A stretch of DNA of 64,000 bases, taken from the IMG/VR virus record IMGVR_UViG_3300030060_004280, positions 40,995 to 104,994 of that record; one strand, written 5' to 3'. Source of the stretch: a virus. The notes beneath the pieces were generated by a model that saw only the letters and a list, made by a program, of their open reading frames with translations, was not told the origin of the DNA and made no database searches. Position numbers and translations under genes: made by a program. Shown one piece after another: positions 20,306-63,709 of this stretch. How positions within the stretch are numbered: the stretch's first letter is position 1; the number at the start of each line of letters is the position of its first letter.

Positions 20306-20306
20306 A

Positions 20307-31846: not shown

Positions 31847-32998
31847 TCATTGTAGGTCGCGAATTGAACCGCTTGCACCAAAGAAACTACCCCATAGTTC
31901 ACCCATAGTTCGGTAAAGTCCTTCCTGTCCGAGCCTGTTAATCGCGAATGGGTCACCTGTTTCAATACCACTTTCAAAGTATTGTGTTGGAATTGCGGTT
32001 TGGAACCACAAGTAGTCAGTATCAAGATAATAGATACGGGATAGAGAACTTGCACCTTCGTCCGGCATATCCTTTGTTGGGATAATTGGAACTCCGTTGT
32101 AAGTTGCTACAATAAATCCTGCTTCGATACCCGGAACACCCTTCACACCGGAATAGGTAGGGGTGATTCTCTTAGAATCCATGAATCTTTGTTGAGATTG
32201 CAACAGTTGTTGAGCGCGCATAAGCGTATCATATCCTGTTAGCATAACCTTTGGATTACCACCGCGAGTCCAAATCTGTTGGAATAGACCATCAAGTTGG
32301 TTTAGCGATAGGTTTCTCTTATTGTTTGCATCTGTTGATACATCAACTTCTGCGCTATGGAAATCTTTTGTTCCGTCGCGAGTAATAGAATACATATCGT
32401 GCTTAGTTAGCGAAGTAGTAATGTGGTTTGTTCCTGTTGTCATCTTGTCCGGGTCGGATGTGAGTCTGTCAAGTGACTCAAAGTTGTTACCGGCAGTTGT
32501 GTCAACATCAACAAGAAGCATCTTGTTAATCATTTCAGCGTGATGCTTACCCATTTCTTCTTTTAGAACCTGTCTAACATCGCCAAGTCCATCATCCTTA
32601 TCGGATAGGAACATGCTTACTTCGGATAGGTCGAAGGTGTGCGCGATAGTCTTAGGCTTAGCCGCTACATGCAGGAACTCCGGTCTTTTGGTTTCCGGTA
32701 GTGTTCCATTTTCTGCGATACCACCGCTAACGCCGGATTCAGCGCGCTCGGTGAGGATTCTCCATCCACTTCGCTCCCACGGTTTCTTAGGAAGAATTGA
32801 AAACGCGTTAAACTCTTGGTTTAACTGCGACCATACTTTACGGCCATAAACCGCTTGATATGTTCCTGCGGTTGTTGACATAAGTGGGCTGTCTGCCTTC
32901 AAAATGTCGCCGCTTGAGTAGGTGTAGCCTGTTTGAGCCGCACCACCGTAGTAGTATCTTTCCATGTCTTGAACTGTTCTTACATAATTTCGTGCCAT
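31847..32998 (-). CDS. Major capsid protein (HK97 fold)
   Basis: Probable start MARNYVRTV at 32998, after GGGAGAGTGA. Follows the protease. HK97-type pattern (KPKTIAHTFDLS...EMGKHHAEMINKMLL...ATYNGVPIIPT...IYYLDTDYL...GSIRDL). Confidence 0.9.
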   Translation of the reverse strand: MARNYVRTVQDMERYYYGGAAQTGYTYSSGDILKADSPLMSTTAGTYQAVYGRKVWSQLNQEFNAFSILPKKPWERSGWRILTERAESGVSGGIAENGTLPETKRPEFLHVAAKPKTIAHTFDLSEVSMFLSDKDDGLGDVRQVLKEEMGKHHAEMINKMLLVDVDTTAGNNFESLDRLTSDPDKMTTGTNHITTSLTKHDMYSITRDGTKDFHSAEVDVSTDANNKRNLSLNQLDGLFQQIWTRGGNPKVMLTGYDTLMRAQQLLQSQQRFMDSKRITPTYSGVKGVPGIEAGFIVATYNGVPIIPTKDMPDEGASSLSRIYYLDTDYLWFQTAIPTQYFESGIETGDPFAINRLGQEGLYRTMGELWGSFFGASGSIRDLQ

Positions 32999-33003
32999 AT
33001 TAT

Positions 33004-34416
33004 TCACTCTCCCCTCAATGCTTTGTCGGCCATGCGGTGAACTTCGTCCCACGACATGTTTGCCATTTCCGTAGTATCGGGAATTGTAATTGATGTGGTT
33101 GAAGCACTCTTAGTAAGAGTTTCTCCACCACCGGATGAAACGCGACTGATTCTTTCATCAAGCGCTACAACTGCTTTTTGCAATTCAAGAAGAGGTTTGC
33201 GGGAGTCAAAGTTTGCTCGCGCTTTCTCATTCTTTGCGATTCGCTGTTCTTTAGAAAGTCTGTCAGCGAAGTAGTCACCGAGAGAACCTTTGAATTGTTG
33301 CTCAACGGATGCCGCCTTATAGACTTCGTAAGCCGCTTCAATGTCACTTTGAGAAACATTTTCGGGCATAATAAAATCGCTCTTAATTACATTCTTGTTA
33401 CCGGATGGTGCGCTACCAAAGTTTTGCTTTGGTCGCTTGCCGGAATCATCTTCGCCCGCACCTTCAAGAGAACCTTGTCCTCTATGGTCGTAGCCGGATT
33501 GTCCCGGTCCATATCCTTTATTCACGCTGTCGAAGTGTGCGCGAGCATCAGCAATGTCGTGTCCTTGACTCTTTGCTGTTTGCTCAAGCCAATTCAAATA
33601 GTCCATTGTTATCATATCATCTGCTTTTGCTGTCATGTCATCACCATACATCATATCGTCGTCCTCATCATCCTCTTCATCCTCTTCTTCATCGTCAAGG
33701 TCAAGTTTAGGTTTGGACTCTTTCTTTTTGTCACCGAATGGGCCGGGGTCGCCGTCACCATCCGGGTCAAGTTGTGGAGGCATGCCTTTGTCAGCATCCT
33801 CGTCTTTCTTTTTCTTATCATCTTCTTCATCATCGAGTTTTTTCGATAGTCGTTCTAATACATTCTGTAATTCTGTCATAGGGTCGCTCATGGTATCACC
33901 TGTGTCCTCCTTGAGAATCCTAAATTGTGCTTCGGGGTTGATACCCTTCTCGCAAATAGTTACCTCATGGAGTTCCATACGACGGATTTCACGGTAATCA
34001 CCGCGAGTAGCGTCGCTCTTGTTAACACGCTCAAAGGCTTGACCGCCTATTGAGAATGACCGAAGGTTGCCCTTGCGGATTTCGGATGCAACTTCGCGGG
34101 CTTTTTCAATATCGCCGCGTAGTTTAATCACAACAAACATGCCGGTATCATCCACTTCGGATTTCCATACACGGCCATTGCTATCTGTGTAAGAAGGTAT
34201 TACCGTTCCTACTTGAATATTGGAGTGCGCAAGTTGAACATTGCGGAATCCATCTGCTTTCATAAATCCACTAAACGCATCTTTCAAAGCGCTACGGGTA
34301 ATTAGGTCGCCTTGCTTGTCGACCATTTCAACCGATGCATAACCTGCAACTACCAAATCGTCACCGAACCCCTTGAGAACAAGAGGGTTAGATTGAGAAG
34401 GTGCAAGAATTGCCAT
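33004..34416 (-). CDS. Prohead protease (HK97/U35-like) fused to acidic scaffolding domain
   Basis: VAGYASVEMVDKQGDLI...LAH...LRSFSIGG...LHEVTICEKGINPEA, followed by an Asp/Glu-rich region and coiled coils. Confidence 0.9.
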   Translation of the reverse strand: MAILAPSQSNPLVLKGFGDDLVVAGYASVEMVDKQGDLITRSALKDAFSGFMKADGFRNVQLAHSNIQVGTVIPSYTDSNGRVWKSEVDDTGMFVVIKLRGDIEKAREVASEIRKGNLRSFSIGGQAFERVNKSDATRGDYREIRRMELHEVTICEKGINPEAQFRILKEDTGDTMSDPMTELQNVLERLSKKLDDEEDDKKKKDEDADKGMPPQLDPDGDGDPGPFGDKKKESKPKLDLDDEEEDEEDDEDDDMMYGDDMTAKADDMITMDYLNWLEQTAKSQGHDIADARAHFDSVNKGYGPGQSGYDHRGQGSLEGAGEDDSGKRPKQNFGSAPSGNKNVIKSDFIMPENVSQSDIEAAYEVYKAASVEQQFKGSLGDYFADRLSKEQRIAKNEKARANFDSRKPLLELQKAVVALDERISRVSSGGGETLTKSASTTSITIPDTTEMANMSWDEVHRMADKALRGE

Positions 34417-34443: not shown

Positions 34444-37400
34444 TCAAACGCGCGGTTGTGTTATTGTGACATTTCCTTTGTAGTCTGTAACGCCTTCTTC
34501 ACCCGCAGTAGTGCGAATAACCTTTGGTTTTTTATCGGTTGTAGCGCGCTTTTCTTTGTATTCTCTCGATGAAGGGTCAAAGTCCGGTAGCGTATCATCA
34601 TTCATGTTGGTTGTTGGACCTCGCGGGGACTCAACATCAGCGCCCGCATAATCTATACCAAGACCTTCAACCCCTGTATGAGTAATTTTTTCTTTTGATA
34701 CGCGCTCTAACATCAATTCAGCCATTTCAAGACCGCGTTTGATAACTTCTTCTTCTTTCGGTAACACTTTTTTGCGCTCTTTAGTGTGACCTGCCGGTGC
34801 TTCGGGGTCAACTTCTTTACTCTTGTAGCGCTTTGGAGTGTTGAAAGCCTTTTCCTTATCTTTTTTGAGAAGAATAGTTGCTATTGGAGTCCAATGAGGT
34901 CGCAAATCTTCGGACAATTTAATGAAATATTCTTCTCCGTGACCCCATAGAGTGTTTTGAGGTTCAAGCATCCACCCACCTTCTTCTTCATTCACTTTGT
35001 AAATCACTTCATCATCAAGTGATGGGAATAAAATATGAATAGCGCCTTTATTCAGTCTAACTTTATGAGGTATTTTTGAATCGCTACACATCATGCTTAG
35101 CGATTCAACACTATCTGCGGCTTGAGGGTGTGCATCTCGGTCAACTCTTGCCGAGCGTATAGTATATGTTGGGTTTTCATCACCTTTGGATGTTACACCT
35201 GTGCAAAATACAGTAATGTATTCGCCTTTATCATACCCTCTTGGACCCTTAGCAGTTCCAACATCCATGTAGTGTTCTCCGTTCAACTCCACCGAGCGCG
35301 CACCGTAGTGTTCGGGATGCATAATTGGACCAATACCAATTCTGTAATTCATACCTTTACGGTCAAGAATAATCACATCAATTTTCTTTTCTTTACTCAA
35401 AAGAATCCACTTGGGGTGTCGTATCTCTCCCCTCATGTATGTAGCGGAGGCATCTCGTAGTAGTATATCGCATGGTGATTCTTCGCGCAATAAATGAACT
35501 GCTTCTTCTAACCCTTCATCATCTGTGCGCTTTGTGTTATATGGTTCGGGCATTTTGATAGTTTCTGTTGATTCAAAATGAGCGCGTAAATGTCTAACTC
35601 GGTCTTTAGCGGGCATATTGTGTGTCTTTTCATCTGCCGCTTCAAGAAGGTCGATGAAATACAATTTATCTCCATCCACGATAGCGTGAACTACAAAGTC
35701 TTTATCATTCACTTTACCCATGTCCTCTTCACAACAATCTGCTAATTCGACCAATTTCATGTCTGCGTTGTATGCTTTTACGCGCTTTCCTTTCTTTTGT
35801 AATATGACAGGTTCACCTTTTGGTATGTGTGACGCTATCCAATCACCACTAAAACCACGAAGATGTTTCAAATCGCTAAGGTCAAAGATTCTATGCATTG
35901 ATTTCATTGGAACAGGGCGACCGTCTTCTTTGAAAATTAGTGTATCGTCTGTAAGAGAGTCAAGCATTTCGCTATCCGAGAGTAGCAACTGTTGACCCGA
36001 CCCCATACCCGAAAACACCGGAAGGTTGCTATTAACACTTTGGCCGGGTATGCCGGATGGTTGCATAGCGACAGGAGGAAATTGTGTGCCTTTATCTGCT
36101 GATACATCATATGGCGGTAGCGCGGAATCAAAATCTCTAAGCCTGTAAGGGTCTAAAGACGCTCTCATTAACAAATCACCTTGATGAAAGTCGCCTTTGT
36201 CGTCATGAATTATGAGTGCATTACTTCTTAGCGCGTGTGTTGCTATTCTATGTGATGGGCGAATAACATGGCCTAATTTTTTATTAGCGGCTGAACATGT
36301 ATGAACTGCGGGTAATTGCAACTCATTAACTCCCATACCTCCTGTTCCAACATGTCGCGAATTGGTGTTTATTTTTCCAATTTCATTATTGACACCTTTT
36401 ACATCACCTTTCAAACGCTGAATGAAAGTTTCCATTCTGTTAGTCAAATCATTAAATCCTTCATCACCTTTGGTTTTTGGTAAAGGTGCTGTCTTGCGAG
36501 CAACTGTATCAATACCATTAGCGCTACCTTTAGAGTGTTTTACTAACGCATGATAGACAGCGTTTAGCGCTTTAATTTCAGCATGCATTTTGTAAGGTTT
36601 TCCCATTTTATTAGTTATTGCATCTCCACCACTCATTAACGGATTATCTTCATCAATTTCTGCATTATGATGGTGACCTCCGGTGACGCTTTTGTAACCA
36701 TACACCCTGCCAACAAAATCACCATCGTCGGTGCTTCTCCCGCTACCTTGACCGAAACCAACTAAAGATTGCGGAGTCATTATCCTCATAAGGTTTTGAC
36801 CTCCTGTTTCATTCTCTTCACCTTCTTCATTTTCTATCATTTGTTTAGCGCTATGCGGAATATACCGAGCATGTAGCACATCTGCAAAATCTTGGGATGT
36901 AGCGTCTTTAGGCAAGACGCGTCTTACTTCATCAAATATCTTCTTAACTAACTCGTTATTGTTCACTTTACCGGCTAACTCTAAAGGATAATGTGCTGAA
37001 TCTAATTCACCATTGACATACTTTTGCATCAAACCCATAACTGAATTATCTTCACCCATATCGACATTACGCTTTATGTCCCCCGCTTGGAAAAATTGCC
37101 TCATCATTGGGGCTGTGGTGTCTTTGATTAAACCATCAATCTGCTGTTCAATAGCGCTGTCACTCATTCCCTTATCCTTAAAATGCTCCTGTAATATCTC
37201 CATCACAGGTTTTCCTGTTTCGCGCGAACAGTTAACTTTGGCATTCTTAATCCAATTTTTTCTCTCTTTAGGGCTAAGTGTTCTCATCCATGTTTCACAT
37301 AAATGTGCGAGCATTTTGGTATCAGCCCATGCTTGATTAGCATGTTTAGGAGTATGAGTTTGAAACAAATCGGGATTGGCCCACTTCAATAAAGGTTTCA

Positions 37401-40400
37401 TGATTTGACTTGCCGCTACTGCTTGCTCATGCATTGTTTGCGCATCTTCAAAATACAATTTGCGCATTTCATGTTCTGTTATAGGAGGCAACTCGCCTAT
37501 GTTATCAACAATATATTTTCCTTGCTCGGTTGCTAATTTTTCAAAGTTGGTAGCGCTGACTGTTGAACCATCTCTATGCGCTTGTCGCGCCGAGTCGCGG
37601 TATTTTTCTAAAGCCTCTTGATAGTGTGATAATGGATTGAGAGCAACAATGTATTGTTTTCCATCCCCATAATAACCTGTAAAATCGCTATCTTGTTTGA
37701 TAGAGCGCTTCAATCTATTTCTCGATGCCGGTCCTAATTCGCTAAACATCGCGCCATTAGATTCTTGATGAAAACTATTCCCTTTATCGTCCGGCGCTGT
37801 TAACTCCTGCACTAATTCTGTGCGGTCGGTTATGTTATCTCTTAGTGGTGTTGGTAGTCGTAGTATCTTACCTTCGTCTTCATAGCGCTTCATAGCGCTC
37901 TCGTATTCATCTTTGTCATAAATAGCAATCTTCGCATCAAAATCGCCACCAAGTAATTCGTTTTGATACAAACCTCCTGCATTATCACCCCTACCTAATG
38001 GGTCACGATGCTTACTTGTATAGGTCGCTCCGGGTTTAAGTTGCTTTGTGTTATGCGTTTTATGGTCTTCTTCGCTGTAATTATCAATTCCATGATGTGC
38101 TTGAAATAGTAAAGTGTGTAACATCAACATACGATTATATGCTTCATCTGCGCTTATCTCACTTGAGTGCAAATCCATTTTCTTTTTTCCAATTCTGCCT
38201 TTTTTTGGTGAATGGTCTTCAAGACCTCTCACATCTCGACCAAAAGTGGAGTCACCTACTCGCCTCAAAGTATTACCTTCTGTGTCTTTTTTAGCGCGAC
38301 TTCTTGACACTCCACCTATGTTATCCGATACAAGTCGCGCATGCCTCATTGCCATTATTGAATCCATAGGCGTGTTATGATTTTCTATACCGCGTAACCA
38401 ATGATGTTTGAAATCAGCCGAAAAGTGATTTGGATTCCTTTCTGTTTCAAGAGCATTTGTATGACTTAAAAGTGGCGCTATAAAAGCGGAGTGACCTGCT
38501 GTTACAGGGGCGGATGCAGGAGTATATTCTAAATACTTATCAAGACCCATTTCCGGTATTTTATCGAGCATGTATTCCTCTTCACTAACCTCTTCTGCTT
38601 GACGCGCACTTACATTCCTTGAGTAACCTTCACGGTCTGCTTGAAATCCTTGCGGGAACTCGACTTCAACACCATTTCCTTCATTAAATCGCTCAAGCAT
38701 TTTATCTTGCGCATCATCACTCATTCCTGCGTTATTCATAGCGCGTTCTAAATCCAACTTAATTCTTGCATGTGCAGGGTCGTCGGGGTCTGCTTGAAAT
38801 CTTTCATTATACTTCTTTTCGGATAATTTTTTACCCTTTGCTGATTGATATGTGTTCTTGACTGATGGTAATGTTGGCTCTCTTTCTTCTTCATCATCGA
38901 CAAGTGGTTGTTCTCGATGAACAAATACAGACGGGAATGCACCATACACTAAATCATCCCAATGCGAAAACGCTTCACCCATAGCACCTTCAAAACCACC
39001 GATAGCGCGTTGCATATAGTATTGCGGAGTCCTTTCTAACTCCGGCTCTCCGTCTAACGGATTGAAAAAGAAGTTTTGATTCTTCAATTTGAAAAGATGC
39101 TTAACATTTCGTAAAAAATCCATGTTGTCTGCGGTTGAACTGCTATCACCATGCATTTTAGCCAACTCGCTCATTACATCTTTTAGTTCATCTTCGGACA
39201 GTATAGCGTGATAGTTGGGCGTGTCTTCACCATCTCCAACTTTTTCTAACAAACCTTGACGGTTAAGAACTTCATTTTGCTCTTCGCGTGTGATACCCAA
39301 CTCGTCGATGTATCGAATAACCTTCTCCGGTGTCATGTCGGAATTGGCTTTTCCTTGCATCAAAAGTTTCTTCTTTACATCTTTATTTTGCATCATTTCT
39401 ATTTGACCGCGCGTTCGACCTTTTTCACCCATAGGTAAAGAGTTGTGACCCGATGTTCCAATGTTACCCGAATAAGTAGCGTGAAGAGCATGAGCAAAGT
39501 TAGAGCAATGTCTTGATAGAAAACCTCTCGCATTATGACCTAATATTTGATTAATTGCCTTATCATCAAAGCGCGGATTGCTTCTGTTATAGTCTTCACC
39601 GTCAACATGCCCTGCACCGTCTAAGAACCATTCTGCAAACTTTATTTTATCTTCATAATCTATGAGGGGTATTCCAAAATAAAGAGGAAAGAAACCATCG
39701 CGCAACTTAGAAGAATCTCTCGATTCGCTTTTGGCTTTGAGTTTCTTGGTAGCGCTTTCGGATATGAAACCAATATCATCATACAAGTTTTCCCATATGT
39801 AATCATTAGGAACACCGCGTATTTCCCATATTTTATGATTAAGGAAATGGTGTTTTAGTGCAGTATTTTCTAAGATAAGGCGAGCGCGCTCTTCTGTCAT
39901 ATCTTTATCGTCAGCATACTCTTGTATTTTTTTGGGCGGTATGGGTAGCGATGTATATATTTCTTTGAATTTATCGCGATACTTTTTGAAAGAATCAACA
40001 AATTGCTTATCGTAAGACGCTTCATTATCCGAATTGCTCCACTTACCCATGTTTTGAGTTTGCGCTAATCTGTGATTAACTCCCATATCTGTCATCGCTT
40101 TATCCATGAGTTTGCGCGTAGGAACACCACCTTCACTTGTGTTGAATATTGCTTGAATGTATTGGGTTGTTATCGGAGTTGTTGAGTTTGCTGATGGAAA
40201 AGAAGATGATGAGTGAAACCAATTCATGTGTCGAGTTGGATGGTCTTCGGAATCAAACTCGCTATCTTCACCCGGCATTGTTGGTAACTGCCAACTCAAA
40301 AAGCGTTGACATAATTCTCTCCTTCTTTGAGGATTAGGGTTATCACCATTTGGACCGCAATCATACCATTCATCAAAGTTGAACATTGGTATTGGTATTC

Positions 40401-40689
40401 TGTTGTGCGGTTTATCCCTACCTTCGTATTGAGTAGTTCTGTTAGAAATAATGTTGGCTTGCTCTCTCCGTGATAATGTTTTATCCGCGACTGTTGCAAT
40501 TTTAGCCTTCGCTAAATATCTTTCAACATCATGAATAAATGACGGAACGCAATAGTTATGATTTTCTAAATTGTTAGCGCTAAATATTACATCTGCCGCT
40601 TCGTTAAGCGCAGGTAATCCCTCAAAATACGACTTTAGGAAAAGGTCTATTGTGCGCGAATGGTATTGTGTTGGGTTGTCTTTTGACAC
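34444..40689 (-). CDS. 2,081-aa protein with C-terminal degenerate ATP-dependent DNA ligase-like domain
   Basis: At ~35100-35900 the ligase motif order is kept: WIASHIPKGEP (I), FVVHAIV (III), LYFIDLL (IIIa), DILLRD...Y..G (IV), KWILL (V), then an OB-like region. The catalytic KxDGxR is lost. GTG start after GAGGTGGTGA. Confidence 0.65.
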   Translation of the reverse strand: MSKDNPTQYHSRTIDLFLKSYFEGLPALNEAADVIFSANNLENHNYCVPSFIHDVERYLAKAKIATVADKTLSRREQANIISNRTTQYEGRDKPHNRIPIPMFNFDEWYDCGPNGDNPNPQRRRELCQRFLSWQLPTMPGEDSEFDSEDHPTRHMNWFHSSSSFPSANSTTPITTQYIQAIFNTSEGGVPTRKLMDKAMTDMGVNHRLAQTQNMGKWSNSDNEASYDKQFVDSFKKYRDKFKEIYTSLPIPPKKIQEYADDKDMTEERARLILENTALKHHFLNHKIWEIRGVPNDYIWENLYDDIGFISESATKKLKAKSESRDSSKLRDGFFPLYFGIPLIDYEDKIKFAEWFLDGAGHVDGEDYNRSNPRFDDKAINQILGHNARGFLSRHCSNFAHALHATYSGNIGTSGHNSLPMGEKGRTRGQIEMMQNKDVKKKLLMQGKANSDMTPEKVIRYIDELGITREEQNEVLNRQGLLEKVGDGEDTPNYHAILSEDELKDVMSELAKMHGDSSSTADNMDFLRNVKHLFKLKNQNFFFNPLDGEPELERTPQYYMQRAIGGFEGAMGEAFSHWDDLVYGAFPSVFVHREQPLVDDEEEREPTLPSVKNTYQSAKGKKLSEKKYNERFQADPDDPAHARIKLDLERAMNNAGMSDDAQDKMLERFNEGNGVEVEFPQGFQADREGYSRNVSARQAEEVSEEEYMLDKIPEMGLDKYLEYTPASAPVTAGHSAFIAPLLSHTNALETERNPNHFSADFKHHWLRGIENHNTPMDSIMAMRHARLVSDNIGGVSRSRAKKDTEGNTLRRVGDSTFGRDVRGLEDHSPKKGRIGKKKMDLHSSEISADEAYNRMLMLHTLLFQAHHGIDNYSEEDHKTHNTKQLKPGATYTSKHRDPLGRGDNAGGLYQNELLGGDFDAKIAIYDKDEYESAMKRYEDEGKILRLPTPLRDNITDRTELVQELTAPDDKGNSFHQESNGAMFSELGPASRNRLKRSIKQDSDFTGYYGDGKQYIVALNPLSHYQEALEKYRDSARQAHRDGSTVSATNFEKLATEQGKYIVDNIGELPPITEHEMRKLYFEDAQTMHEQAVAASQIMKPLLKWANPDLFQTHTPKHANQAWADTKMLAHLCETWMRTLSPKERKNWIKNAKVNCSRETGKPVMEILQEHFKDKGMSDSAIEQQIDGLIKDTTAPMMRQFFQAGDIKRNVDMGEDNSVMGLMQKYVNGELDSAHYPLELAGKVNNNELVKKIFDEVRRVLPKDATSQDFADVLHARYIPHSAKQMIENEEGEENETGGQNLMRIMTPQSLVGFGQGSGRSTDDGDFVGRVYGYKSVTGGHHHNAEIDEDNPLMSGGDAITNKMGKPYKMHAEIKALNAVYHALVKHSKGSANGIDTVARKTAPLPKTKGDEGFNDLTNRMETFIQRLKGDVKGVNNEIGKINTNSRHVGTGGMGVNELQLPAVHTCSAANKKLGHVIRPSHRIATHALRSNALIIHDDKGDFHQGDLLMRASLDPYRLRDFDSALPPYDVSADKGTQFPPVAMQPSGIPGQSVNSNLPVFSGMGSGQQLLLSDSEMLDSLTDDTLIFKEDGRPVPMKSMHRIFDLSDLKHLRGFSGDWIASHIPKGEPVILQKKGKRVKAYNADMKLVELADCCEEDMGKVNDKDFVVHAIVDGDKLYFIDLLEAADEKTHNMPAKDRVRHLRAHFESTETIKMPEPYNTKRTDDEGLEEAVHLLREESPCDILLRDASATYMRGEIRHPKWILLSKEKKIDVIILDRKGMNYRIGIGPIMHPEHYGARSVELNGEHYMDVGTAKGPRGYDKGEYITVFCTGVTSKGDENPTYTIRSARVDRDAHPQAADSVESLSMMCSDSKIPHKVRLNKGAIHILFPSLDDEVIYKVNEEEGGWMLEPQNTLWGHGEEYFIKLSEDLRPHWTPIATILLKKDKEKAFNTPKRYKSKEVDPEAPAGHTKERKKVLPKEEEVIKRGLEMAELMLERVSKEKITHTGVEGLGIDYAGADVESPRGPTTNMNDDTLPDFDPSSREYKEKRATTDKKPKVIRTTAGEEGVTDYKGNVTITQPRV

Positions 40690-40701
40690 ACAATCACCAC
40701 C

Positions 40702-41043
40702 TCAATAATAGTCTGTTGCGCCTGTAAATGCACTTGGAGGACTCTTATCCGGGTCACCACCCGCTACATTCTCATGTGCTGATAGCGCATCATCGTGAGA
40801 TGAATGTTGCTTTTCGTCTAAATTAACTTCTTCTTTCTTTGGGTCTGTGCGCTTTACATCTTCAACTTCAATAGTTTGATTATTGGTATGATAATATCCC
40901 GGCTTTACTTTCTCGACACCGCGAACACTCTCAAACCCTGTTGCGTTTTTAGACCCAAACTTGCCTTCAACGGCTTTTGCTTCTTTCAATAGCGCTTCTA
41001 AATCCGGTGCGTGTTGCCCTGCTTCGACTTTCATTGGTTTCAT
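40702..41043 (-). CDS. Hypothetical head-module protein
   Basis: 113 aa, hydrophilic, ATGA overlap with the upstream gene, GGAGG RBS. Confidence 0.6.
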   Translation of the reverse strand: MKPMKVEAGQHAPDLEALLKEAKAVEGKFGSKNATGFESVRGVEKVKPGYYHTNNQTIEVEDVKRTDPKKEEVNLDEKQHSSHDDALSAHENVAGGDPDKSPPSAFTGATDYY

Positions 41044-41387
41044 GAGTCAACCCTCCTGCCTTCTGCTACTGCGGCTACATTAGCCATAGCGTGAATATCC
41101 TCCCATGACATTGCATGCCAATCTTCATTTGAACTTGGCATATCTATACCCATACTTTCACTTATTTCCTTAGATGCTTTTGAAATAACTTCATCGCGCT
41201 CTCCGCGAAGTGGGTCACCCCACACATCTTCACTTGCAGGAGTAACTGCTTTTACAAATCCCGACTTGCGTAACATTGCTTGAGGATTAGATACTTGCTT
41301 TCGCAACATACCTAATTCTGCATCCATCGCCTCCATCTTACCAATTAGCGCTTTCATAAGCACCATAGCGTCGGCTTCTTGGGACAA
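41040..41387 (-). CDS. Small scaffold-like protein
   Basis: N-terminal coiled coil. C-terminal MSWEDIHAMA matches the protease/scaffold C-terminus MSWDEVHRMA. Confidence 0.6.
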   Translation of the reverse strand: MSQEADAMVLMKALIGKMEAMDAELGMLRKQVSNPQAMLRKSGFVKAVTPASEDVWGDPLRGERDEVISKASKEISESMGIDMPSSNEDWHAMSWEDIHAMANVAAVAEGRRVDS

Positions 41388-41390
41388 GTA

Positions 41391-41732
41391 TCACACCTGC
41401 CCTTGCTTCTTGAAAACGCCACCGATTCTATCCGGTCCAATGTAACCCATAGGTCGGTCTTCTCCTTTAGCAATGACATTCTCTATACTGTTGAATTGCA
41501 TTACAGGAACACCGCCCGCGTAGCGGTCGTTAATTCCTTCAATTTTGACTTCGGTTTGAGATTTGTAAATAGCGGTTACATCATCAGCAAGATAATCACT
41601 TGTTGTTTGTATGCTTCTTAGAAATTGTTCTGCTGAAACAAGGTCATTATTTGATAGCGCTATTTTGAACTCGGCCATCGCTGTTTCTAACTTGCGAACC
41701 ATCGGGTCCATCTTATTCAGTAGGTCGCTCAT
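41391..41732 (-). CDS. Hypothetical head-module protein
   Basis: Probable leaderless start MSDLLNKMDP at 41732, with a 24-nt spacer from the TACCTTCAAG motif. The ORF-track extension overlaps the portal gene. Confidence 0.6.
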   Translation of the reverse strand: MSDLLNKMDPMVRKLETAMAEFKIALSNNDLVSAEQFLRSIQTTSDYLADDVTAIYKSQTEVKIEGINDRYAGGVPVMQFNSIENVIAKGEDRPMGYIGPDRIGGVFKKQGQV

Positions 41733-41756
41733 AGGTAAGCCCATATCTGCCCGACT

Positions 41757-41766
41757 CTTGAAGGTA
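41757..41766 (-). promoter_or_regulatory. Putative late promoter TACCTTCAAG-N24-ATG
   Basis: Same 10-mer with the same 24-nt spacing occurs upstream of the ATG at 63570. Confidence 0.55.
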
Positions 41767-41772
41767 TCGGCA

Positions 41773-43626
41773 TTAAAAACCGCTTTCTTGGTTCTTACTT
41801 GTAGGGTCTTTAGCGGCTTCAACAGCGTCAAGAGCCTGTTCAGTTACCGTTTTTTCCGAGCCGCGCTGATTCTTTTTTGAAGTGGGTGCGCCACTCAAGT
41901 GCGTTTCCGAACTAAGAGGCGCGGGTCCATTATCGCGCTGTCCTGTTCCTTCACCAAGTCCCATAGCGCCGCCCTTTTCCATCATCATGATAGCCTGTCC
42001 GCCTCCCGATGCTCCGCCTTGAGGCGGTAGCCCCCCGCCGCCTTGAGGAATCATTGCACCGCCCGGAGGTGTCCCTTGTTGTGGTGGCGGCATAGGCATA
42101 CCGCCGCCGGGAGTTGGAGGTGGCATTCCACCCGGAGGCGGCGCTCCACCCGGAGGCGGCGCTCCACCTGCACCACCGGCAGGAGGTTGTTGAGGTTGAG
42201 GGTCGGGCTTCTTGTAAGTGAATCGTATATCTCGCCCTGCATCTTCGGTTAATTCCGGTTGGAAACCAAGCGCTTGCATACGCTGTGCAATATTGACTTC
42301 TTGCTCATCGCGTCGTAGTCTTGTAACATCATCCTCTTCTTCGTTAGGGTAAAGAGTCAATTCCCATTCGTCGACACCCATTTCTTTCAATAGGCGCGGG
42401 AATAGATTTTTTGCATATATTTTCTGTCCGTATTCAACAGCACGATTAGTGACAAGAATCTGCATACCCTCATTGTTGAGTCCGCCGGACTTACCTGCGT
42501 CCATCATAAAGATACTCGATACACCATAAAATGCCGCTATACGCATTCTTACTTCATCACGAACCTGCGCGTATTGCATTTCATCAAGGCTATCCATGAA
42601 GCGCACAAACTCAACTTTACCTCGACCGGATGCTGATTCTATACCAACTTTCGGAATATAATGAGGGTCGCGTTCCATCTTCTCTTCTGCGCCTTTCCAA
42701 AACGATGCAGTTGATTGAATGTTATCAGTAGTGATTGCGAGAACACCACGCGGTATTCTTCGCTTTTGATATGCAAGGTAAATGTAATTATCCATAGCGG
42801 TAAGAGTTTGGGCTTGCCTCCACATTGTAGCGACAGGACTACGCCCATACAATTTAGAAGGATTAAACTTACTTGTGTGAATAATTTCACCATCAATGTA
42901 ATACTGCGTTTTACCACTACCTGCGGTGTTGATGTAGTGAACATCTTGTAATGGTAGCGAGCAAACTTCACACTTTTTATGGTCGCCATTGTGAGGGTAT
43001 GTTCTGTCACGATGAACAGGGCATATGAGATACCTGCCACCTCTTGCTCCGCGCTTATCAGCAACTATCCTCATGAAAGTTGGGTCACCACGCATAACTT
43101 CTTTAATTCGGAAAAACTCTATACCGCCGCTATCGGGGTCAATGAAATACTCTTTGATAAGAATAAGGAATGCATCATCAACAATGTCTAAATCCCATTC
43201 TATTTCACGCATAACATCCATAAAAGATTGGTCCATGCTGTTGCGTTGGTCTAACAACCAACGAGGATAAAGAACTTGGTCTGCGCTTGGGCTTTTGAAC
43301 TCTTCATTACCGCATATTCGACATTCTGCAACGGTATCATGATTGTATTCTTCGCCACAATTGGTGCATTTTTTGTGAAACTTTTTTTGCCAATAATGGC
43401 CGCGCCTAAATATTTCTTGACATAGTGTGTTAATTGTAGTTCTCAAAACAACTGATTCTTGAACAGTTGCATATAGCGCGGGAATGCTTACACCTTGAAC
43501 AAGAACAGGCTCTTGAATACCACTTTTCCAAAGCGGCATAATTGGTTCGGGTGTAGTTCTGCGACGGAATGGTTTTGACAAAGACGACAAGAATCTGCCG
43601 ACTACACCTTTCTTTTCTTCAACCAT
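41773..43626 (-). CDS. Portal protein with Zn-finger insertions and Pro/Gly-rich tail
   Basis: Portal hallmarks (SFMDVMREIEWDLDIVDDAFL...EIIH...LYGRSPV...EMQYAQVRDEVRMRIAAFYGVS). Cys pairs CTNC/CRIC and CPVH/CEVC. Downstream of TerL. Confidence 0.85.
   Translation of the reverse strand: MVEEKKGVVGRFLSSLSKPFRRRTTPEPIMPLWKSGIQEPVLVQGVSIPALYATVQESVVLRTTINTLCQEIFRRGHYWQKKFHKKCTNCGEEYNHDTVAECRICGNEEFKSPSADQVLYPRWLLDQRNSMDQSFMDVMREIEWDLDIVDDAFLILIKEYFIDPDSGGIEFFRIKEVMRGDPTFMRIVADKRGARGGRYLICPVHRDRTYPHNGDHKKCEVCSLPLQDVHYINTAGSGKTQYYIDGEIIHTSKFNPSKLYGRSPVATMWRQAQTLTAMDNYIYLAYQKRRIPRGVLAITTDNIQSTASFWKGAEEKMERDPHYIPKVGIESASGRGKVEFVRFMDSLDEMQYAQVRDEVRMRIAAFYGVSSIFMMDAGKSGGLNNEGMQILVTNRAVEYGQKIYAKNLFPRLLKEMGVDEWELTLYPNEEEDDVTRLRRDEQEVNIAQRMQALGFQPELTEDAGRDIRFTYKKPDPQPQQPPAGGAGGAPPPGGAPPPGGMPPPTPGGGMPMPPPQQGTPPGGAMIPQGGGGLPPQGGASGGGQAIMMMEKGGAMGLGEGTGQRDNGPAPLSSETHLSGAPTSKKNQRGSEKTVTEQALDAVEAAKDPTSKNQESGF
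42128..42168. repeat. 18-bp tandem repeat encoding GAPPPG in the portal tail
   Basis: ccacccggaggcggcgct x2 plus a partial copy. Confidence 0.8.
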
Positions 43627-45062
43627 TAAATCAGCCTCTCTATGCGGTGAATGTCGTCGACGAGCCGTATAACTTCATTGTCGCGCTGTCCCCATGCAAG
43701 AACTTCTGCCTCATCAACTTTCCACTCTCGGAGCAATTTATCACGCTCTTCGGGAACATCTTTCCAATTTTCCCACTTCACTATACGATATAATTCTTCT
43801 CTTCGTGATTTAACAAGGTTGCTTTTAGACCCTCTTAAATCGAGTAAATGCAATACTGCGTTGGCTTGATTCTTTTTCATTTGTAAATGAGGCGTTATAC
43901 CTTTGAGTAATTTGCGCAAATCATCAGCACCATAAAACTGCAAACGATGTTGTGTGCGCTTACTATTCTTGTGTATTTTCAAATCAGTCTGTAACACTCC
44001 GCATCCAAGCGACTTATGCAATTGCTCACAATGCAACTTGCCCCTACCCCCTGTCGCTACAAACCCTGCTCTTGGTTCTCCGCGTTTTGTGATTGTGATA
44101 TACCCGTCAGCATCGAGAAATCCTGCGGCATAAGCCCATATATCTTTGACAATTACAGTATCGTCTTGTATGATTCCATAGTTAGTGCCTATCTTTTCAA
44201 TATCATATTCGACACCATGCATCTTCAACAAAGATGCCATTTTTCTAATAGTTAGATGTTTAGGTGAACCTATTGAATTGTATATTTCATTTGAAGATAG
44301 TGGACCTCTTTCTATAAGAATGTCTGCTGAACGCGTAAGCCATATTGCTTCTTGTTTCTTTATGTCGTCTATCGGATGCAATGTCTTTCTCCATTGGGAT
44401 TTGGCATCCTTTCTCATTTGTCTTGAATCAAGCCATAATTGCAATTGGTCTTGGTTAAAGTCACCTTCTATTTGAGATAATTTAGTAATTACATCGTTAG
44501 CCTTCTCCCACATAGCGCATGCTCTTCGCAAAGACATTTCCTTTGTCACGCCATGTTTTCTCAAAGCGTGTAAGTTTCTATCGGAAACTCCAAGAGCGCG
44601 TATAGATGATAAGTGCTTATTAGCCCACGGTATAGATTTCAATGTTGATTCAACCTCTTCTTTTTTCGCAATTCGTATAGCGTCTATGGCAAGGTCTATG
44701 TCTTCTCGCATATCTTTTCTATCGCGTCGCGCCATTCGCAACTCCTTCACCATTGATTCTGCATCTTTTCCAAACATTGATTGAAACCAACCATTGTGAG
44801 GCATAGCGCTTTTGAGTTGTTGCGTAGGTTGAACTGATTGTTGTTGCGCTACCACTTCTTGTATTTTCTTTTTCTCTTTATCCTGTTCCATCGCATCGGG
44901 TTGAGATGGGGTTGTTGGTGCGGATAATTCACCTTCTCCTTGTGACTGTGTTTTAGGAGCATCGCCCATATTTGGATTTGCTACTGTTCCTGTTGCTTTA
45001 CGCAGAATGGCATCTATTTCTTCATCCCTAAGAATAGAGCCGGTCCACATTAACAATTCCAC
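43626..45062 (-). CDS. Protein with helical N-terminus, HTH-like segment and C-terminal single LAGLIDADG domain
   Basis: WAYAAGFLDADGYITI...LRKLLKGITPHLQMKKNQANAVLHLL is the classic single-motif LAGLIDADG pattern. LSSNEIYNSI...TIRKMASLLK is HTH-like. Confidence 0.75.
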   Translation of the reverse strand: MELLMWTGSILRDEEIDAILRKATGTVANPNMGDAPKTQSQGEGELSAPTTPSQPDAMEQDKEKKKIQEVVAQQQSVQPTQQLKSAMPHNGWFQSMFGKDAESMVKELRMARRDRKDMREDIDLAIDAIRIAKKEEVESTLKSIPWANKHLSSIRALGVSDRNLHALRKHGVTKEMSLRRACAMWEKANDVITKLSQIEGDFNQDQLQLWLDSRQMRKDAKSQWRKTLHPIDDIKKQEAIWLTRSADILIERGPLSSNEIYNSIGSPKHLTIRKMASLLKMHGVEYDIEKIGTNYGIIQDDTVIVKDIWAYAAGFLDADGYITITKRGEPRAGFVATGGRGKLHCEQLHKSLGCGVLQTDLKIHKNSKRTQHRLQFYGADDLRKLLKGITPHLQMKKNQANAVLHLLDLRGSKSNLVKSRREELYRIVKWENWKDVPEERDKLLREWKVDEAEVLAWGQRDNEVIRLVDDIHRIERLI

Positions 45063-45463
45063 CTTTTCAAAGCCGCGCCTTTCGGAGTCAATTTACCGCC
45101 TTTACTTGTTGGTCCTTTCACTCCACCCATTCTCGCACAAAACGATTTGCGCCTTTTTGCTTTTTTACCACCGGGTTTCAACTTACTCGGTTTAGTTGTA
45201 ACCGGAGGTTTTAGATTCGCGCCGCTTTTTCGCTTTGCGGCGGCTCGACCTTTAGCGTTCAATCCACCTTTACGGCTGTGTTTATTTGGATTGTAACCAT
45301 GAAACGGCTTGCTTTTCTTTTTGGCTTTGAGAACTTCAAGAGCAACTTGAACAGGTGAGCAACAATCACAAAATGTAACCTCTTTTGCTATATCGCTATC
45401 ATTCATCATCGCTAACTCTTCTGCCGTTATTGGCTCATGTTCTATGTATTCGTATTCTGTCAA
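45050..45463 (-). CDS. Basic phage protein (DUF6321-like) with acidic leader
   Basis: GGLNAKGRAAAK...NLKPPV...RRKSFCARMGG...ALKRWNC is a pattern I recognise from marine phages. Preceded by SPVQVALEVLKA. Confidence 0.6.
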   Translation of the reverse strand: MTEYEYIEHEPITAEELAMMNDSDIAKEVTFCDCCSPVQVALEVLKAKKKSKPFHGYNPNKHSRKGGLNAKGRAAAKRKSGANLKPPVTTKPSKLKPGGKKAKRRKSFCARMGGVKGPTSKGGKLTPKGAALKRWNC

Positions 45464-46860
45464 TCAATCAACCCCGCCATCATTTCATCAATGTCGACTA
45501 TTCTTTCACGGAACTCGGTAGTTCCCCAATGCGCTAATGCAAGCGCGATAGCAAAGTCATCATGTCGCCCGATGCTATCTAACTTACCCTTCTTAGACAT
45601 ACCGAACATGAGTAGTTCCCGTTCTAACTCGCTCATAAGGGTTCGGGAGTTTTCATCACCCCACGGTAATCTTAACTGTTCTTTTTCAAAACGCATAACC
45701 AACCCCATCAATAATGATTCTCGGCGTTGACGCGTTGAAATAAATGTCTTAATTGGTAAATCTGTATCTGCGCGTAGTTCAGTTGCAAACACACGCTGAA
45801 AGTTGTTGGCTTCAAGTTCTATAACCATAGGTGCAAACTTGGCATTGATTTTCTGTATCTCCATAATTTGTGTTCGGAAATCCATATTCTTTCTGCGAAC
45901 TACATGCACTAATTCAAGCAGTTCGGGATTGGTTGATGGGCGGCGTAATACCACCATAACAGTATAGTCAGCGCTTCTATCCGATGAAATAGCGGGGTCC
46001 CAACCGACAAAGTATTGGTCGTCGGGGTCGCCTTCTGCTCTATTGATAATTCTTAAATCGCTATCTTTAGCGGCCTGTAATACCAACGATGGGAATAAAC
46101 TGCTCATATCGTCCATCGGTTCACAAAGATATTCTCGCGCAAAAGCAATAGCGGGCATATCGTTACGCCTCGCATCAAGTGAATCTAAATCCCAACGCTC
46201 CGGCCATAGCGCTACACCCTTTGAGTTGATAGCGGGATATGTTTCAACAAGGTAACCCTCACGCTGTTCTAACTCGGTGTAAAGGTCAGTCGGTGTAAAA
46301 GGTGTTCCGACAATCATTAATTTTGAAGTGTGGTGAAGTGTAGGAACAAGAACTTCATAAAACCAACTTGCAACTCTTTGCAATTCTGTATCTGTTGTTC
46401 CCCACAGAATGTCGTCACAAAGAATCAAGTCCGGGTGAATACCACGGATAGCGCCACCAACCGACTTCGCGCTAATGTTAGAACCGTTGCTAAATCCAAA
46501 GAATGTTTTAGACCACGCATCGGCTTTTTTCATTTTTGCTAAAAATGGTATTCCGTCAATCAAATCGTTTAATGTGCGCATATGGTGTATAGACTGATGC
46601 AAACTGTGGCTGATAAGAACCGCTTTACATTTTGGATTGAACGCTACTTTCCAAAGCAAATAGCCGAGAAATAGCGTTGACTTACCGTGGTCCCTTGCCG
46701 CTTTTACACAATAGCGCTTTTGAGTTTCAAGATTATTATACCATTCTTCGTGATGATGTGATAACTGAAAGCCAAGAATATCTTCAAAGAAGAACTTGAA
46801 GTCGCGCTTCGCTACTTCATAATCTATCTCTTCAAGTGTTTCAAGGCTCAAGCCCTGCAT
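45460..46860 (-). CDS. terL: Terminase large subunit
   Basis: Walker A AARDHGKST, IRGIHPDLILCDD (Walker B), IVGTP, LWPERW, FAREYLCEP, nuclease GWDPA and HDDFAIAL. Confidence 0.95.
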   Translation of the reverse strand: MQGLSLETLEEIDYEVAKRDFKFFFEDILGFQLSHHHEEWYNNLETQKRYCVKAARDHGKSTLFLGYLLWKVAFNPKCKAVLISHSLHQSIHHMRTLNDLIDGIPFLAKMKKADAWSKTFFGFSNGSNISAKSVGGAIRGIHPDLILCDDILWGTTDTELQRVASWFYEVLVPTLHHTSKLMIVGTPFTPTDLYTELEQREGYLVETYPAINSKGVALWPERWDLDSLDARRNDMPAIAFAREYLCEPMDDMSSLFPSLVLQAAKDSDLRIINRAEGDPDDQYFVGWDPAISSDRSADYTVMVVLRRPSTNPELLELVHVVRRKNMDFRTQIMEIQKINAKFAPMVIELEANNFQRVFATELRADTDLPIKTFISTRQRRESLLMGLVMRFEKEQLRLPWGDENSRTLMSELERELLMFGMSKKGKLDSIGRHDDFAIALALAHWGTTEFRERIVDIDEMMAGLID

Positions 46861-63570: not shown

Positions 63571-63594
63571 TATACGGGCGAGGAAGTGAATGCC

Positions 63595-63604
63595 CTTGAA
63601 GGTA
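63595..63604 (-). promoter_or_regulatory. Putative late promoter TACCTTCAAG-N24-ATG
   Basis: Identical 10-mer and spacing to the site at 41757-41766. Confidence 0.55.
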
Positions 63605-63709
63605 ACGGTCGTGGGGCAAAACGGTGTAGGAGAAGCGCGCCTCAAATATTTTTTATTTGAGATTTTTTTTTCTGTATTTCGCATGGGGTTAAGCAGGGCA
63701 AAAGTGCGC

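Follow-up and report, generated by a model that had tools for sequence, protein, structure and literature searches.

A DNA ligase fold predicted to be catalytically dead in the C-terminal part of a giant head-module protein of a magrovirus-type archaeal virus

What role does a DNA ligase fold have beside the portal gene of a virus, and which of its functions outlives catalysis? This question concerns the magroviruses, which are among the most abundant archaeal viruses of the surface ocean. To our knowledge, neither a magrovirus nor a magrovirus host has been cultured, so that magrovirus biology is inferred from gene content alone. An 'ATP-dependent DNA ligase' was listed in the magrovirus structural module by Philosof et al. 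(2017) and flagged there as an oddity without explanation (PMC5434244). Neither an inactivation of this ligase nor a giant fusion is mentioned in the magrovirus literature that was examined.

The DNA analyzed here is a stretch of 64,000 nt (the window), which corresponds to positions 40,995-104,994 of the IMG/VR record IMGVR_UViG_3300030060_004280. A giant ORF was found between a portal gene and a protease gene, as given in the original prediction. The locus comprises the following genes:

41773..43626, minus strand: portal protein, upstream context (phrog_18178, E 3.6e-73; PF04860)
40702..41831, minus strand: three small ORFs (146, 115, and 113 aa) in the interval from the portal gene to the giant gene
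34444..40689, minus strand: giant gene (P0001), 2,081 aa, GTG start
33004..34416, minus strand: prohead serine protease (S78) with a C-terminal extension, immediately downstream (PF04586, E 3e-9; phrog_23555)
31847..33052, minus strand: major capsid protein (MCP), context (phrog_24667, E 7e-53; PF17236)

The gaps on either side of the giant gene are short, with 12 nt to the small ORF upstream of it and 27 nt to the protease gene that follows. Two of the three small ORFs have counterparts in the same slot of sister clades (w146 against L086_112, E 7e-8; w115 against L086_105, E 1e-7, and against L006_75, E 1e-5). The window virus is a marine archaeal virus of the magrovirus type. Its portal protein has its nearest relatives in the portals of Druskaviridae haloviruses (31% identity). 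Thermosome or GroEL chaperonins were found in related near-complete genomes, the thermosome type in two near-complete genomes of the magrovirus lineage of the window protein; chaperonin carriage has been described for magroviruses (PMC5434244).

The giant protein was divided into the following parts:

35965..40689, minus strand: N-terminal ~1,575 aa, mostly alpha-helical and hypervariable (AF2 model and identity bins)
35380..35931, minus strand: ligase-type nucleotidyltransferase (NTase, adenylation) domain without catalytic residues (residues ~1587-1770)
35809..35841, minus strand: remnant of motif I, WIASHIPKGEP (residues 1617-1627)
35050..35379, minus strand: OB-fold domain (residues ~1771-1880; 2cfm alignment and DSSP beta-barrel strand pattern)
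34690..35049, minus strand: small beta domain after the OB fold, followed by two long helices (residues ~1881-2000)
34576..34698, minus strand: conserved C-terminal tail motif KEKIT.TG..GLGIDYA....SPRGPT...D.LPDFD

An AF2 model of residues 1570-2081 reached a pLDDT above 90 across most of the core. Using Foldseek, this model was matched to archaeal and human ATP-dependent DNA ligases (E 1e-13 to 1e-9). The VIA-align comparison with the ligase of P. furiosus (2cfm) gave a Z of 21.1 over 281 aligned residues with an rmsd of 4.0, in which model residues 1-356 lie on chain residues 177-559, covering both the NTase and the OB domain; 3gde was aligned over 263 residues (Z 18.3). The adenylation domain, which includes the conserved lead-in MHRIFD..L..L.GFSGDW, was aligned over 175-192 residues with human LIG1, LIG3, and LIG4 as well as with archaeal ligases (VIA-align Z 17-20, rmsd 2.6-4.1). 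It is followed directly by the OB-fold domain, an order found in ATP-dependent DNA ligases. Thus, structure prediction of the C-terminal ~500 aa bears out the ligase fold that had been read from the sequence, including the persisting OB-like region. The post-OB region was modelled with strands at model positions 307-344 and helices at 351-381 and 409-434, the pLDDT between the helices being below 50. The predicted arrangement of NTase and OB domains is closed and apo-like, with 2cfm and 3gde as best fits, and is uninformative on DNA clamping.

At the sequence level, the window protein has no Pfam match at E ≤ 1 and no NCBIfam match at E ≤ 0.001, a ligase-type N-terminal DNA-binding domain was not detected in it, and the family profile retrieved no PDB ligase at E ≤ 10. 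PF01068 is matched by 9 of 20 family members (best E 1.2e-5), and the snurportin cap-binding domain PF21974 weakly by 3 of 20 (best E 0.002). On the strength of the structural model, the resemblance of the module to DNA ligases is not due to chance. The suspicion that automated annotation could mistake the protein for an active ligase does not hold for the window protein itself, since HMM pipelines would not call it a ligase in the absence of a Pfam or NCBIfam match; it does hold for relatives, some of which have sub-threshold PF01068 matches, and for the literature.

The register of the former active site was provided by a ligase with canonical motifs that occupies the same slot in related viruses (L006:10001-12484). 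It was aligned to the window protein by BLASTP at E 1e-23, ungapped through motif I (..GFSGDYVVQEKYDGMR..), and its EKYDGMR aligns with KYDGAR, which is motif I in the ligase of T. sibiricus (4eq5). In this register, Ile1622 of WIASHIPKGEP takes the position of the adenylated lysine, Lys1624 that of the aspartate and Pro1627 that of the arginine, and only the glycine is kept. In motif III, whose glutamate contacts the ribose in ligases, D-G/A-E is replaced by H1668-A1669-I1670. The EG of motif IV is replaced by C1740-D1741, with R1745 in place of the lysine, and WxKxK of motif V by WILLS (residues 1761-1765). The strings WIASHIPKGEP, HAI, CD, and WILLS had been named in the prediction and were recovered, together with the losses predicted from them. 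The prediction had also named its own possible refutation, namely that the lysine of IPKG is the catalytic one. This residue aligns with the aspartate of KxDG, off the catalytic position, and its column contains K, Q, D, E, S, or H. The module is thus very probably a pseudoligase with a real fold. As all residues of nucleotidyl transfer are lost, it is predicted to be unable to adenylate itself or to seal DNA.

IMG/VR contains at least 600 stretches that match this gene, and full-length giant homologues of 1,800-2,580 aa occur in marine metagenomes. The survey of motif I across homologues, which had been proposed at the outset, showed no lysine at the adenylated position in ~250 giant-clade proteins, nor in any of 79 giant-clade IMG/VR loci. 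In all 79 loci, the motif III glutamate is isoleucine, valine or leucine, the motif IV lysine is arginine and motif V is without lysine. An hmmalign set of 273 sequences, which includes all three forms of the gene described below, has W (117), Y (49), M (32), I (22), and K (12) in the catalytic lysine column, together with 12 H/F and 20 gaps; the 12 lysines all come from two outgroup clades. In this set, the motif III glutamate column holds I/V/M/L/Y/T/F, and arginine makes up 249 of 255 residues in the motif IV lysine column. As judged from these alignments, the catalytic loss is lineage-wide and ancient, and no decay peculiar to the window copy.

Three forms of the protein were found in one syntenic slot, namely a form of ~830 aa in which the five NTase motifs are all present, a form of ~1,150 aa with degenerate motifs and the dead form of 1,800-2,580 aa. 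The gene order TerL, LAGLIDADG/HNH, portal, small ORFs, ligase(-like) gene, protease, and MCP is common to them and agrees in 80 of 80 giant-clade loci and in 49 of 49 outgroup loci (two clades, >15 kb), as far as the contigs reach. Both outgroup clades were recovered by a family profile search (E 1e-30 to 1e-46), and a tblastn search with the same-slot ligase of related magroviruses gave an E of 8e-17 onto window positions 34987-35913.

The ~830-aa ligases (L006:10001-12487, P0271) share with the window protein the portal-protease slot, a homologous NTase and OB core, the lead-in M(H/Y)RIFD..GFSGD and the PKW segment. They retain E-K-x-D-G-x-R, the motif III aspartate, EG..KD and W-K-x-K in 80 of 80 loci, and PF01068 is passed by L006:10001-12484 with 97.6 bits. 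Judging from motifs I-V, these ligases are probably active; a canonical motif VI was not evident in them by eye. In contrast, the window protein lacks motifs I, III, IV, and V as well as any Pfam match, is 2.5 times as long, has an unrelated N-terminus and carries the additional C-terminal PRGPT tail motif. The ~1,150-aa clade (P0268, L086:10001-13456) resembles the window protein in its slot, an N-terminal block, the ligase-like core, the C-terminal PRGPT motif, the arginine in place of the motif IV lysine and the loss of the motif V lysine, and its head proteins are the closest to those of the window (MCP about 60% identity). It differs in having half the length, in keeping the motif I arginine and in a tyrosine at the motif III glutamate; its motif I column contains methionine in 34 of 36 loci and lysine in 2 of 36, and several database members keep this lysine. 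Since a sister lineage keeps an intact-motif ligase in the slot and the module of the window has lost the motifs, the published structural-module ligase would be a pseudoenzyme in the window lineage.

The region in front of the module had been described as ~1,600 aa of unknown nature, and indeed no relative of the N-terminal ~1,575 aa was retrieved from Pfam, PHROG, PDB, or BFVD. Residues 1-1200 were modelled as helical with a mean pLDDT of 72.9. Fold searches with this model, which is multi-domain and hence a weak probe, gave best E values of 0.64 (Foldseek, PDB) and 0.02 (BFVD), and the best Z in a VIA-wide search was 7.6, limited to residues 1-63. The only N-terminal parts conserved across clades are the first ~60 aa, forming a three-helix bundle, and a block at ~300-420, which is also present in the ~1,150-aa clade (E 7e-8). 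When the family is scored in bins of 50 aa, identity with the window protein is 40-60% in the C-terminal module and 10-20% in the N-terminal part. Where portal, protease, and MCP share 90, 96, and 88%, respectively, the module shares 74% and the N-terminus 26%. By these identities, conservation is highest in the dead module, within a protein that evolves fast and as a whole outpaces the head core. The tail motif contains the invariant residues G2006, P2022, G2024, P2025, T2026, and D2036. Its core P(R/S/H/T)GPT is common to the giant and ~1,150-aa clades and missing from the canonical-motif clade, and it might direct docking or cleavage. The role of the invariant LLRD and RHPKW could be to contact a protein partner instead of DNA.

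The best overall explanation, to which we assign a probability of about 0.6, is that of a pseudoligase core in a head-module protein which is loaded near the portal and binds DNA non-catalytically. The gene would be co-expressed with the head genes; its product would enter the procapsid close to the portal and may be trimmed by the prohead protease encoded next to it. The two-domain clamp derived from the ligase may have been kept for non-catalytic binding, most plausibly at a nick or at an end of the genome once it is packaged or ejected, where it could act in genome retention, in end protection or in handing over to a host ligase. To the helical, hypervariable N-terminal region of ~1,575 aa we would assign a lineage-specific function, which may face the host. 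For the protein as such, a packaged DNA-binding role is suggested by gene position and by the corresponding halovirus slot; it is conceivable, with the odds somewhat against it. The pI of the dead module is about 6.5 for the NTase and OB parts alike, i.e., not basic, which does not speak for DNA binding, though it is compatible with it.

An architectural or assembly head protein with no nucleic-acid role, in which the ligase fold is a rigid module touching the portal, the protease-scaffold or the capsid interior and the long helical N-terminus an internal filler or ruler, is unlikely but deserves serious weighing. It would suit the location of the gene, which neighbours the protease-scaffold within the head-assembly block, the near-neutral pI, a nucleotide pocket plugged by hydrophobic residues (W/Y/M/I at the lysine position) and the tail motif of the dead and degenerate clades, which is not found in the canonical-motif clade and resembles a docking element. 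However, such a protein should co-evolve slowly with portal and MCP, and this one diverges several-fold faster, varies from 1,800 to 2,580 aa in length and has a counterpart of ~830 aa in a sister lineage. It is likewise unlikely that the 2,081-aa product is a polyprotein precursor, from which the prohead protease would free a ligase-like module of ~350-400 aa and N-terminal pieces; this is compatible with the preferred reading of a head-module pseudoligase. It is consistent with the giant gene abutting the protease gene, with low-confidence linkers between confident domains in both AF2 models, and with the module occurring as a separate gene product of ~520 aa on some contigs (P0125, P0126, P0178), although these short products could reflect either fragmented gene calls or real splits.

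Two readings place the function outside the virion or return it to chemistry. A non-virion intracellular factor, e.g., a decoy sitting on nicks or titrating out a partner of the host ligase during replication, with a position in the head module that is historical, is improbable. The fast evolution, typical of host-interface proteins, would fit it, as would the two near-complete dead-clade genomes, in which no ligase was detected besides the dead module, so that nick handling must involve host enzymes; against it, every locus examined shows strict synteny and tight spacing within the late head operon. It is very improbable that the module is still an enzyme, using another nucleophile or binding a nucleotide non-covalently, e.g., as a sensor of caps, AMP-DNA, or nucleotides. 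Invariant charged residues do lie near the former active site (R1745, D1746, E1755, R1757, H1758, K1760, D1680, R1697, R1702), the motif IV lysine is arginine in all members, and three relatives weakly resemble the snurportin cap-binding domain. However, the residues contacting ATP or AMP are all gone together (K, D, and R of motif I, E of motif III, K-x-K of motif V), their replacements are hydrophobics that differ between subclades, Lys1624 is unconserved, and the motif I loop has no invariant Ser, Thr, His, or Lys except an S/T two residues before the lysine position.

What is new here is that the structural-module ligase appears to be a pseudoenzyme in one large magrovirus lineage, with a sister lineage in which its motifs are intact, and the dead-clade gene should not be counted in the viral replisome. 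With intact- and degenerate-motif comparators at hand, this is a clean natural example of pseudoenzyme evolution. We further propose, as a tentative and rather doubtful extension, that in the abundant lineage of the window a capsid-delivered ligase system was turned into a non-catalytic nick or end clamp fused to a rapidly diversifying host-facing effector, with no working ligase encoded. If no working ligase is encoded, the published 'near-complete replisome including ligase' needs correcting for these viruses, and if the proposal is true, the three extant forms line up as natural stages by which an enzyme within a virion protein became a pseudoenzyme.

Compared with archaeal and eukaryotic ligases (2cfm, 4eq5, LIG1 1x9n), the module has the adenylation and OB folds in the same order (Z 21.1 to 17.8), but identity is ~13-18%, the catalytic residues are all replaced, and, unlike in cellular ligases, it makes up the C-terminal part of a giant head-module protein. 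That a covalent-NTase fold can come to serve as a non-catalytic binder of nucleic-acid ends has precedent in the m3G-cap-binding domain of snurportin-1 (PF21974), snurportin having the capping-enzyme NTase fold without catalysis. There is no specific kinship with it, as the best structural matches of the window protein are DNA ligases and neither capping enzymes nor snurportin. The slot itself had been suggested to hold MuF-type minor head proteins. No homology was found, with no Pfam or PHROG match to MuF (PF04233), no match of the family HMM to the MuF-like gp112 of a halovirus, and no known internal or ejection protein detected with Pfam, PHROG and the fold searches of residues 1-1200. The positional part of the suggestion stands, as the portal-protease interval of halovirus HCTV-16, which is among the nearest cultured relatives, encodes MuF-like and zeta-toxin proteins besides a hypothetical one. 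Like MuF/SPP1 gp7-type minor head proteins and 'polyvalent' packaged phage proteins, the window protein occupies the post-portal slot and is large, modular and fast-evolving.

The giant ORF of 2,081 codons belongs to a long series of minus-strand genes, as is seen in the late region of tailed viruses. The gap to the preceding gene is 12 nt and that to the protease gene 27 nt, and the altered motif strings on which the original prediction of a catalytically dead DNA ligase was built (WIASHIPKGEP, HAI, CD and WILLS) were found in it where they had been placed. The neighborhood is as follows:

45460-46860, minus strand, large terminase
43626-45062, minus strand, free-standing homing-endonuclease gene (478 aa) with a C-terminal HNH-endonuclease match (phrog_5046, E 1e-10)
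41773-43626, minus strand, portal
between portal and giant ORF, minus strand, three small ORFs
34444-40689, minus strand, giant ORF (2,081 aa)
33004-34416, minus strand, S78 prohead protease with a C-terminal extension
31847-33052, minus strand, major capsid protein (MCP)
within the window, minus strand, tail genes, among them the tube protein

A motif MSW(D/E)(E/D)(V/I)H.MA is common to the C-termini of the protease-scaffold protein (33004-34416, minus strand) and of a 115-aa ORF (41040-41387, minus strand). Its presence at the C-terminus of the giant protein was ruled out, as the motif is absent there.

Three further genes of this region are of unusual size or composition. The tail tube protein (25302-27776, minus strand) has 824 aa, and its match to the Phage_tube_2 profile of 266 positions stretches across residues 341-776, which points to large insertions or additional domains. 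Downstream of the tail-tube region lies a 5,633-aa ORF (3419-20320, minus strand), extraordinarily long for an archaeal virus, which might be a tape measure, a fiber or another giant protein. A third giant gene in the same 64 kb, an ORF of 2,465 aa (56287-63684, minus strand), gave no Pfam match at E ≤ 0.001.

By sequence, the giant protein matched nothing in Pfam (E ≤ 1), PHROGs, NCBIfam or, using phmmer, the PDB; tblastn against 50,697 phage records and a search of the PDB with the family profile were likewise negative. The link to ligases emerged solely via relatives, structure prediction and a sister clade. The C-terminal module (residues 1570-2081) was modeled with AlphaFold2 from a 32-sequence alignment, with a pLDDT of about 85-95 across model residues 20-300. 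In a Foldseek search of the PDB the top matches were all ATP-dependent DNA ligases (T. sibiricus, P. furiosus, human LIG3, LIG1 and LIG4), with E-values between 1e-13 and 1e-9 in alignments of about 350-390 columns. VIA-align superimposed the module on the P. furiosus ligase with a Z-score of 21.1 (281 residues, rmsd 4.0), covering the adenylation and OB domains, and on the adenylation domains of the human ligases with Z-scores of 17-20. Among 20 diverse family members, nine matched the ligase family PF01068 (best E 1.2e-5) and three the snurportin cap-binding domain. Since the structure matches and the distant sequence evidence agree, the predicted ligase fold is considered solid, and the original claim of such a fold is thereby borne out.

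The residue register could be fixed with the help of relatives. When 1.84 billion representatives were searched with a profile, only 234 of them were returned, including two outgroup clades, one of about 1,150 aa (P0268 type) and one of about 830-910 aa (P0271 type). The latter carries the textbook motifs QEKYDGxR, LD(A/G)E, EGVVIKD and NPKWIKWKK. One of its members from IMG/VR (L006:10001-12487) passed PF01068 at 97.6 bits, and its motif I was aligned to KYDGAR in the T. sibiricus ligase, whose structure is known. The same protein matched the window module by BLASTP (E 1e-23) in an alignment that is ungapped from the lead-in M-H/Y-RIFD..GFSGD through motif I. This places Ile1622 at the position of the adenylated lysine, Lys1624 at that of the aspartate and Pro1627 at that of the arginine. 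His-Ala-Ile (1668-1670) occupies the D-G/A-E of motif III, Cys-Asp and Arg1745 are found at the E-G and K of motif IV, and Leu1763 and Ser1765 stand at the two lysine positions of motif V. Lys1624, the lysine of the IPKG stretch, was also considered as a shifted catalytic residue. This was ruled out, as it lies two positions off the register and is not conserved, its column holding K, Q, D, E, S or H among close relatives. The alignment of relatives also includes the module in the variants SLYPQGEH and SLYPHGEH.

The loss extends through the whole giant clade (1,800-2,580 aa), so that the original observation was not only correct but understated. In an hmmalign set of 273 sequences covering all three forms, the column of the catalytic lysine contains W (117), Y (49), M (32), I (22), K (12), H or F (12) and gaps (20), the lysines being confined to the two outgroup clades. 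A further 79 giant-clade loci from IMG/VR have Y, I or W at this position and in no case a lysine; the motif III Glu, the motif IV Lys and the motif V Lys are restored in none of them. The ~830-aa clade kept E-K-x-D-G-x-R, the motif III Asp, EG..KD and W-K-x-K in 80/80 loci. Judged by its motifs, the ~1,150-aa clade is intermediate between the canonical and the dead forms: methionine replaces the catalytic lysine in 34 of 36 loci (Lys in two, and in several database members), the Arg and Gly of motif I are retained, motif III Glu is changed to Tyr, motif IV Lys to Arg, and the lysines of motif V are gone.

The giant protein is conserved very unevenly. Across the family, identity to the window protein in 50-aa bins is 40-60% in the C-terminal module and 10-20% in the N-terminal 1,550 aa, with the first 50 aa (31%) as an exception. 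The related locus L137 shares 90% identity with the window in the portal, 96% in the protease and 88% in the MCP, compared with 74% in the module and 26% in the N-terminal region. The whole giant protein evolves much faster than the head core, and as the dead module is its most constrained part, the module clearly still does something. Its residues R1745, D1746, E1755, R1757, H1758 and K1760 are invariant. For the remotest loci, global pairwise alignment gave N-terminal identities of 0-1%, which were discarded as an aligner artifact.

Residues 1-1200 were predicted by AlphaFold2 to be mostly helical and multi-domain, with a mean pLDDT of 72.9; long segments reach 80-93, and the linkers are of low confidence. 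With this model, a blunt probe at 1,200 residues, Foldseek reached at best E 0.64 in the PDB and E 0.02 (TM about 0.06) in BFVD. Exhaustive VIA-align comparison gave no meaningful relative, its best hit (Z 7.6) covering residues 1-63, a three-helix bundle of generic type, and an ESM Atlas search with residues 1-800 yielded no usable match. Within the searches made with the predicted model of residues 1-1200 no relative was thus found, a result that falls short of 'no known fold'.

All three forms occupy the same slot. Using tblastn with the window head proteins, the order TerL, endonuclease, portal, small ORFs, ligase or ligase-like gene, protease and MCP was recovered in every sufficiently long locus (outgroup 49/49, giant clade 80/80). 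Identity to the window is about 60% (MCP) and 50% (portal) for the ~1,150-aa clade, and about 38% and 46%, respectively, for the ~830-aa clade, so that by its head proteins the ~1,150-aa clade is the nearer of the two. In a portal tree rooted with a halovirus, three well-supported clades were resolved, but the long outgroup branch makes the root unreliable. The direction of change is therefore argued from the logic of the motifs and from derived features that clades share, not from the tree. The ~1,150-aa protein and the giant family have in common an N-terminal block (E 7e-8) and a C-terminal P(R/S/H/T)GPT tail motif, while the ~830-aa protein has nothing but the ligase core in common with the giants. 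In the simplest history, catalysis would have disappeared a single time from a head-module ligase with intact motifs, in the ancestor that the ~1,150-aa and giant clades share; this ancestor would also have gained the tail motif, and the N-terminal region would afterwards have grown to about 1,300-2,000 aa.

On some contigs the ligase-like module appears as a separate product of about 520 aa (P0125, P0126, P0178 and P0196; ~520-545 aa); the genes may be split there, or the products may be fragments left by gene calling. The canonical-motif clade has a 640-aa ORF (L006:7030-8952, plus strand) between its portal and ligase genes; it had no Pfam match and no significant similarity to the N-terminus of the giant (best domain E 0.027).

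Among the 50,697 phage records, portal relatives were found only in archaeal tailed viruses, the closest being the Druskaviridae haloviruses HCTV-5, HVTV-1 and HCTV-1 (~31% identity). Contigs on which the giant protein is encoded measure about 105 kb. Whole genomes behind four loci were inspected: G001 and G002 (L185 and L202; giant clade), G003 (L028; canonical-motif clade) and G004 (L086; ~1,150-aa clade). The near-complete G001 and G002, which carry close homologues, encode a thermosome-like chaperonin, G003 encodes GroEL together with an archaeal-type replicative ligase, and no chaperonin was detected in G004; in the genomes tested, chaperonin type follows the clade split. Magroviruses, which infect Marine Group II (Poseidoniales) archaea, have a homing endonuclease inserted in their structural module (PMC5434244; PMC12999244). 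The endonuclease gene of the window (43626-45062), located between terminase and portal and syntenic in all three clades, is its counterpart. Portal kinship, chaperonins, ligase and endonuclease match the published description of magroviruses. From chaperonin type alone, the clade of the window resembles magrovirus group A (or D), and the canonical-motif clade resembles group B.

Two PF01068 genes are present in G003, a complete genome of the GroEL type: the 506-aa replicative ligase and the 834-aa ligase of the structural module. In G001 (98% complete), G002 (100%) and G004 (88%), searches with PF01068, PF09414, PF01653 and the replicative ligase of G003 behind a loose pre-screen found nothing except a sub-threshold match inside the giant gene of G002, and the 64-kb window holds no second ligase-like gene. 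That the dead clade does without a working ligase is treated as a lead only, owing to the loose pre-screen and to the replicative "thermostable ligase" reported in group A by Philosof et al. (PMC5434244).

Taken from sequence comparison, these data show a predicted ligase-fold pseudoenzyme that is under purifying selection and encoded within the head-assembly block; we put the probability of a pseudoligase at about 0.9. The original interpretation, a ligase exapted as a virion protein that binds DNA ends or nicks, was reasonable: fold and motif register uphold its pseudoenzyme part, and the binding part stays tentative. The giant protein would be produced along with the head proteins and then loaded into the procapsid, as the slot between portal and protease-scaffold encodes packaged minor head or ejected proteins in tailed viruses. 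In true ligases the NTase-OB pair closes around a nick. Here it might be kept as a non-catalytic clamp that holds either a partner protein or the genome, the latter at a nick, an end or a cohesive-end junction, and the hypervariable N-terminus could serve lineage-specific, possibly host-facing functions. A packaged DNA-binding protein of this kind is the favored reading, though somewhat less likely than not. The module has a pI of about 6.5 and is not basic, which speaks against binding to DNA. Its strongest competitor is a part in head architecture or assembly that involves no DNA binding. Cleavage by the neighboring protease would be compatible with the packaged DNA-binding reading as an addition to it.

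In the nearest haloviruses, the same slot holds MuF-like and zeta-toxin proteins; gp111, the MuF-like gp112 and the zeta-toxin gp113 gave nothing below E 0.2 against the family HMM at maximum sensitivity. A full-text search for archaeal viruses whose structural module encodes an inactivated ligase returned nothing relevant, and neither did literature searches for virions containing a ligase fold without activity or for proteomics of halovirus virions that covers the proteins of this slot. Philosof et al. described the ligase of the magrovirus structural module as a distinct ligase family (PMC5434244), and later magrovirus papers counted "DNA ligase" among the replication genes; the magrovirus literature examined states neither its inactivation nor that it forms the C-terminus of a protein of about 2,000 aa. 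The structural-module ligase of magroviruses is thus already known but unexplained, and what is new here is its pseudoenzyme state and its fusion into a giant protein.
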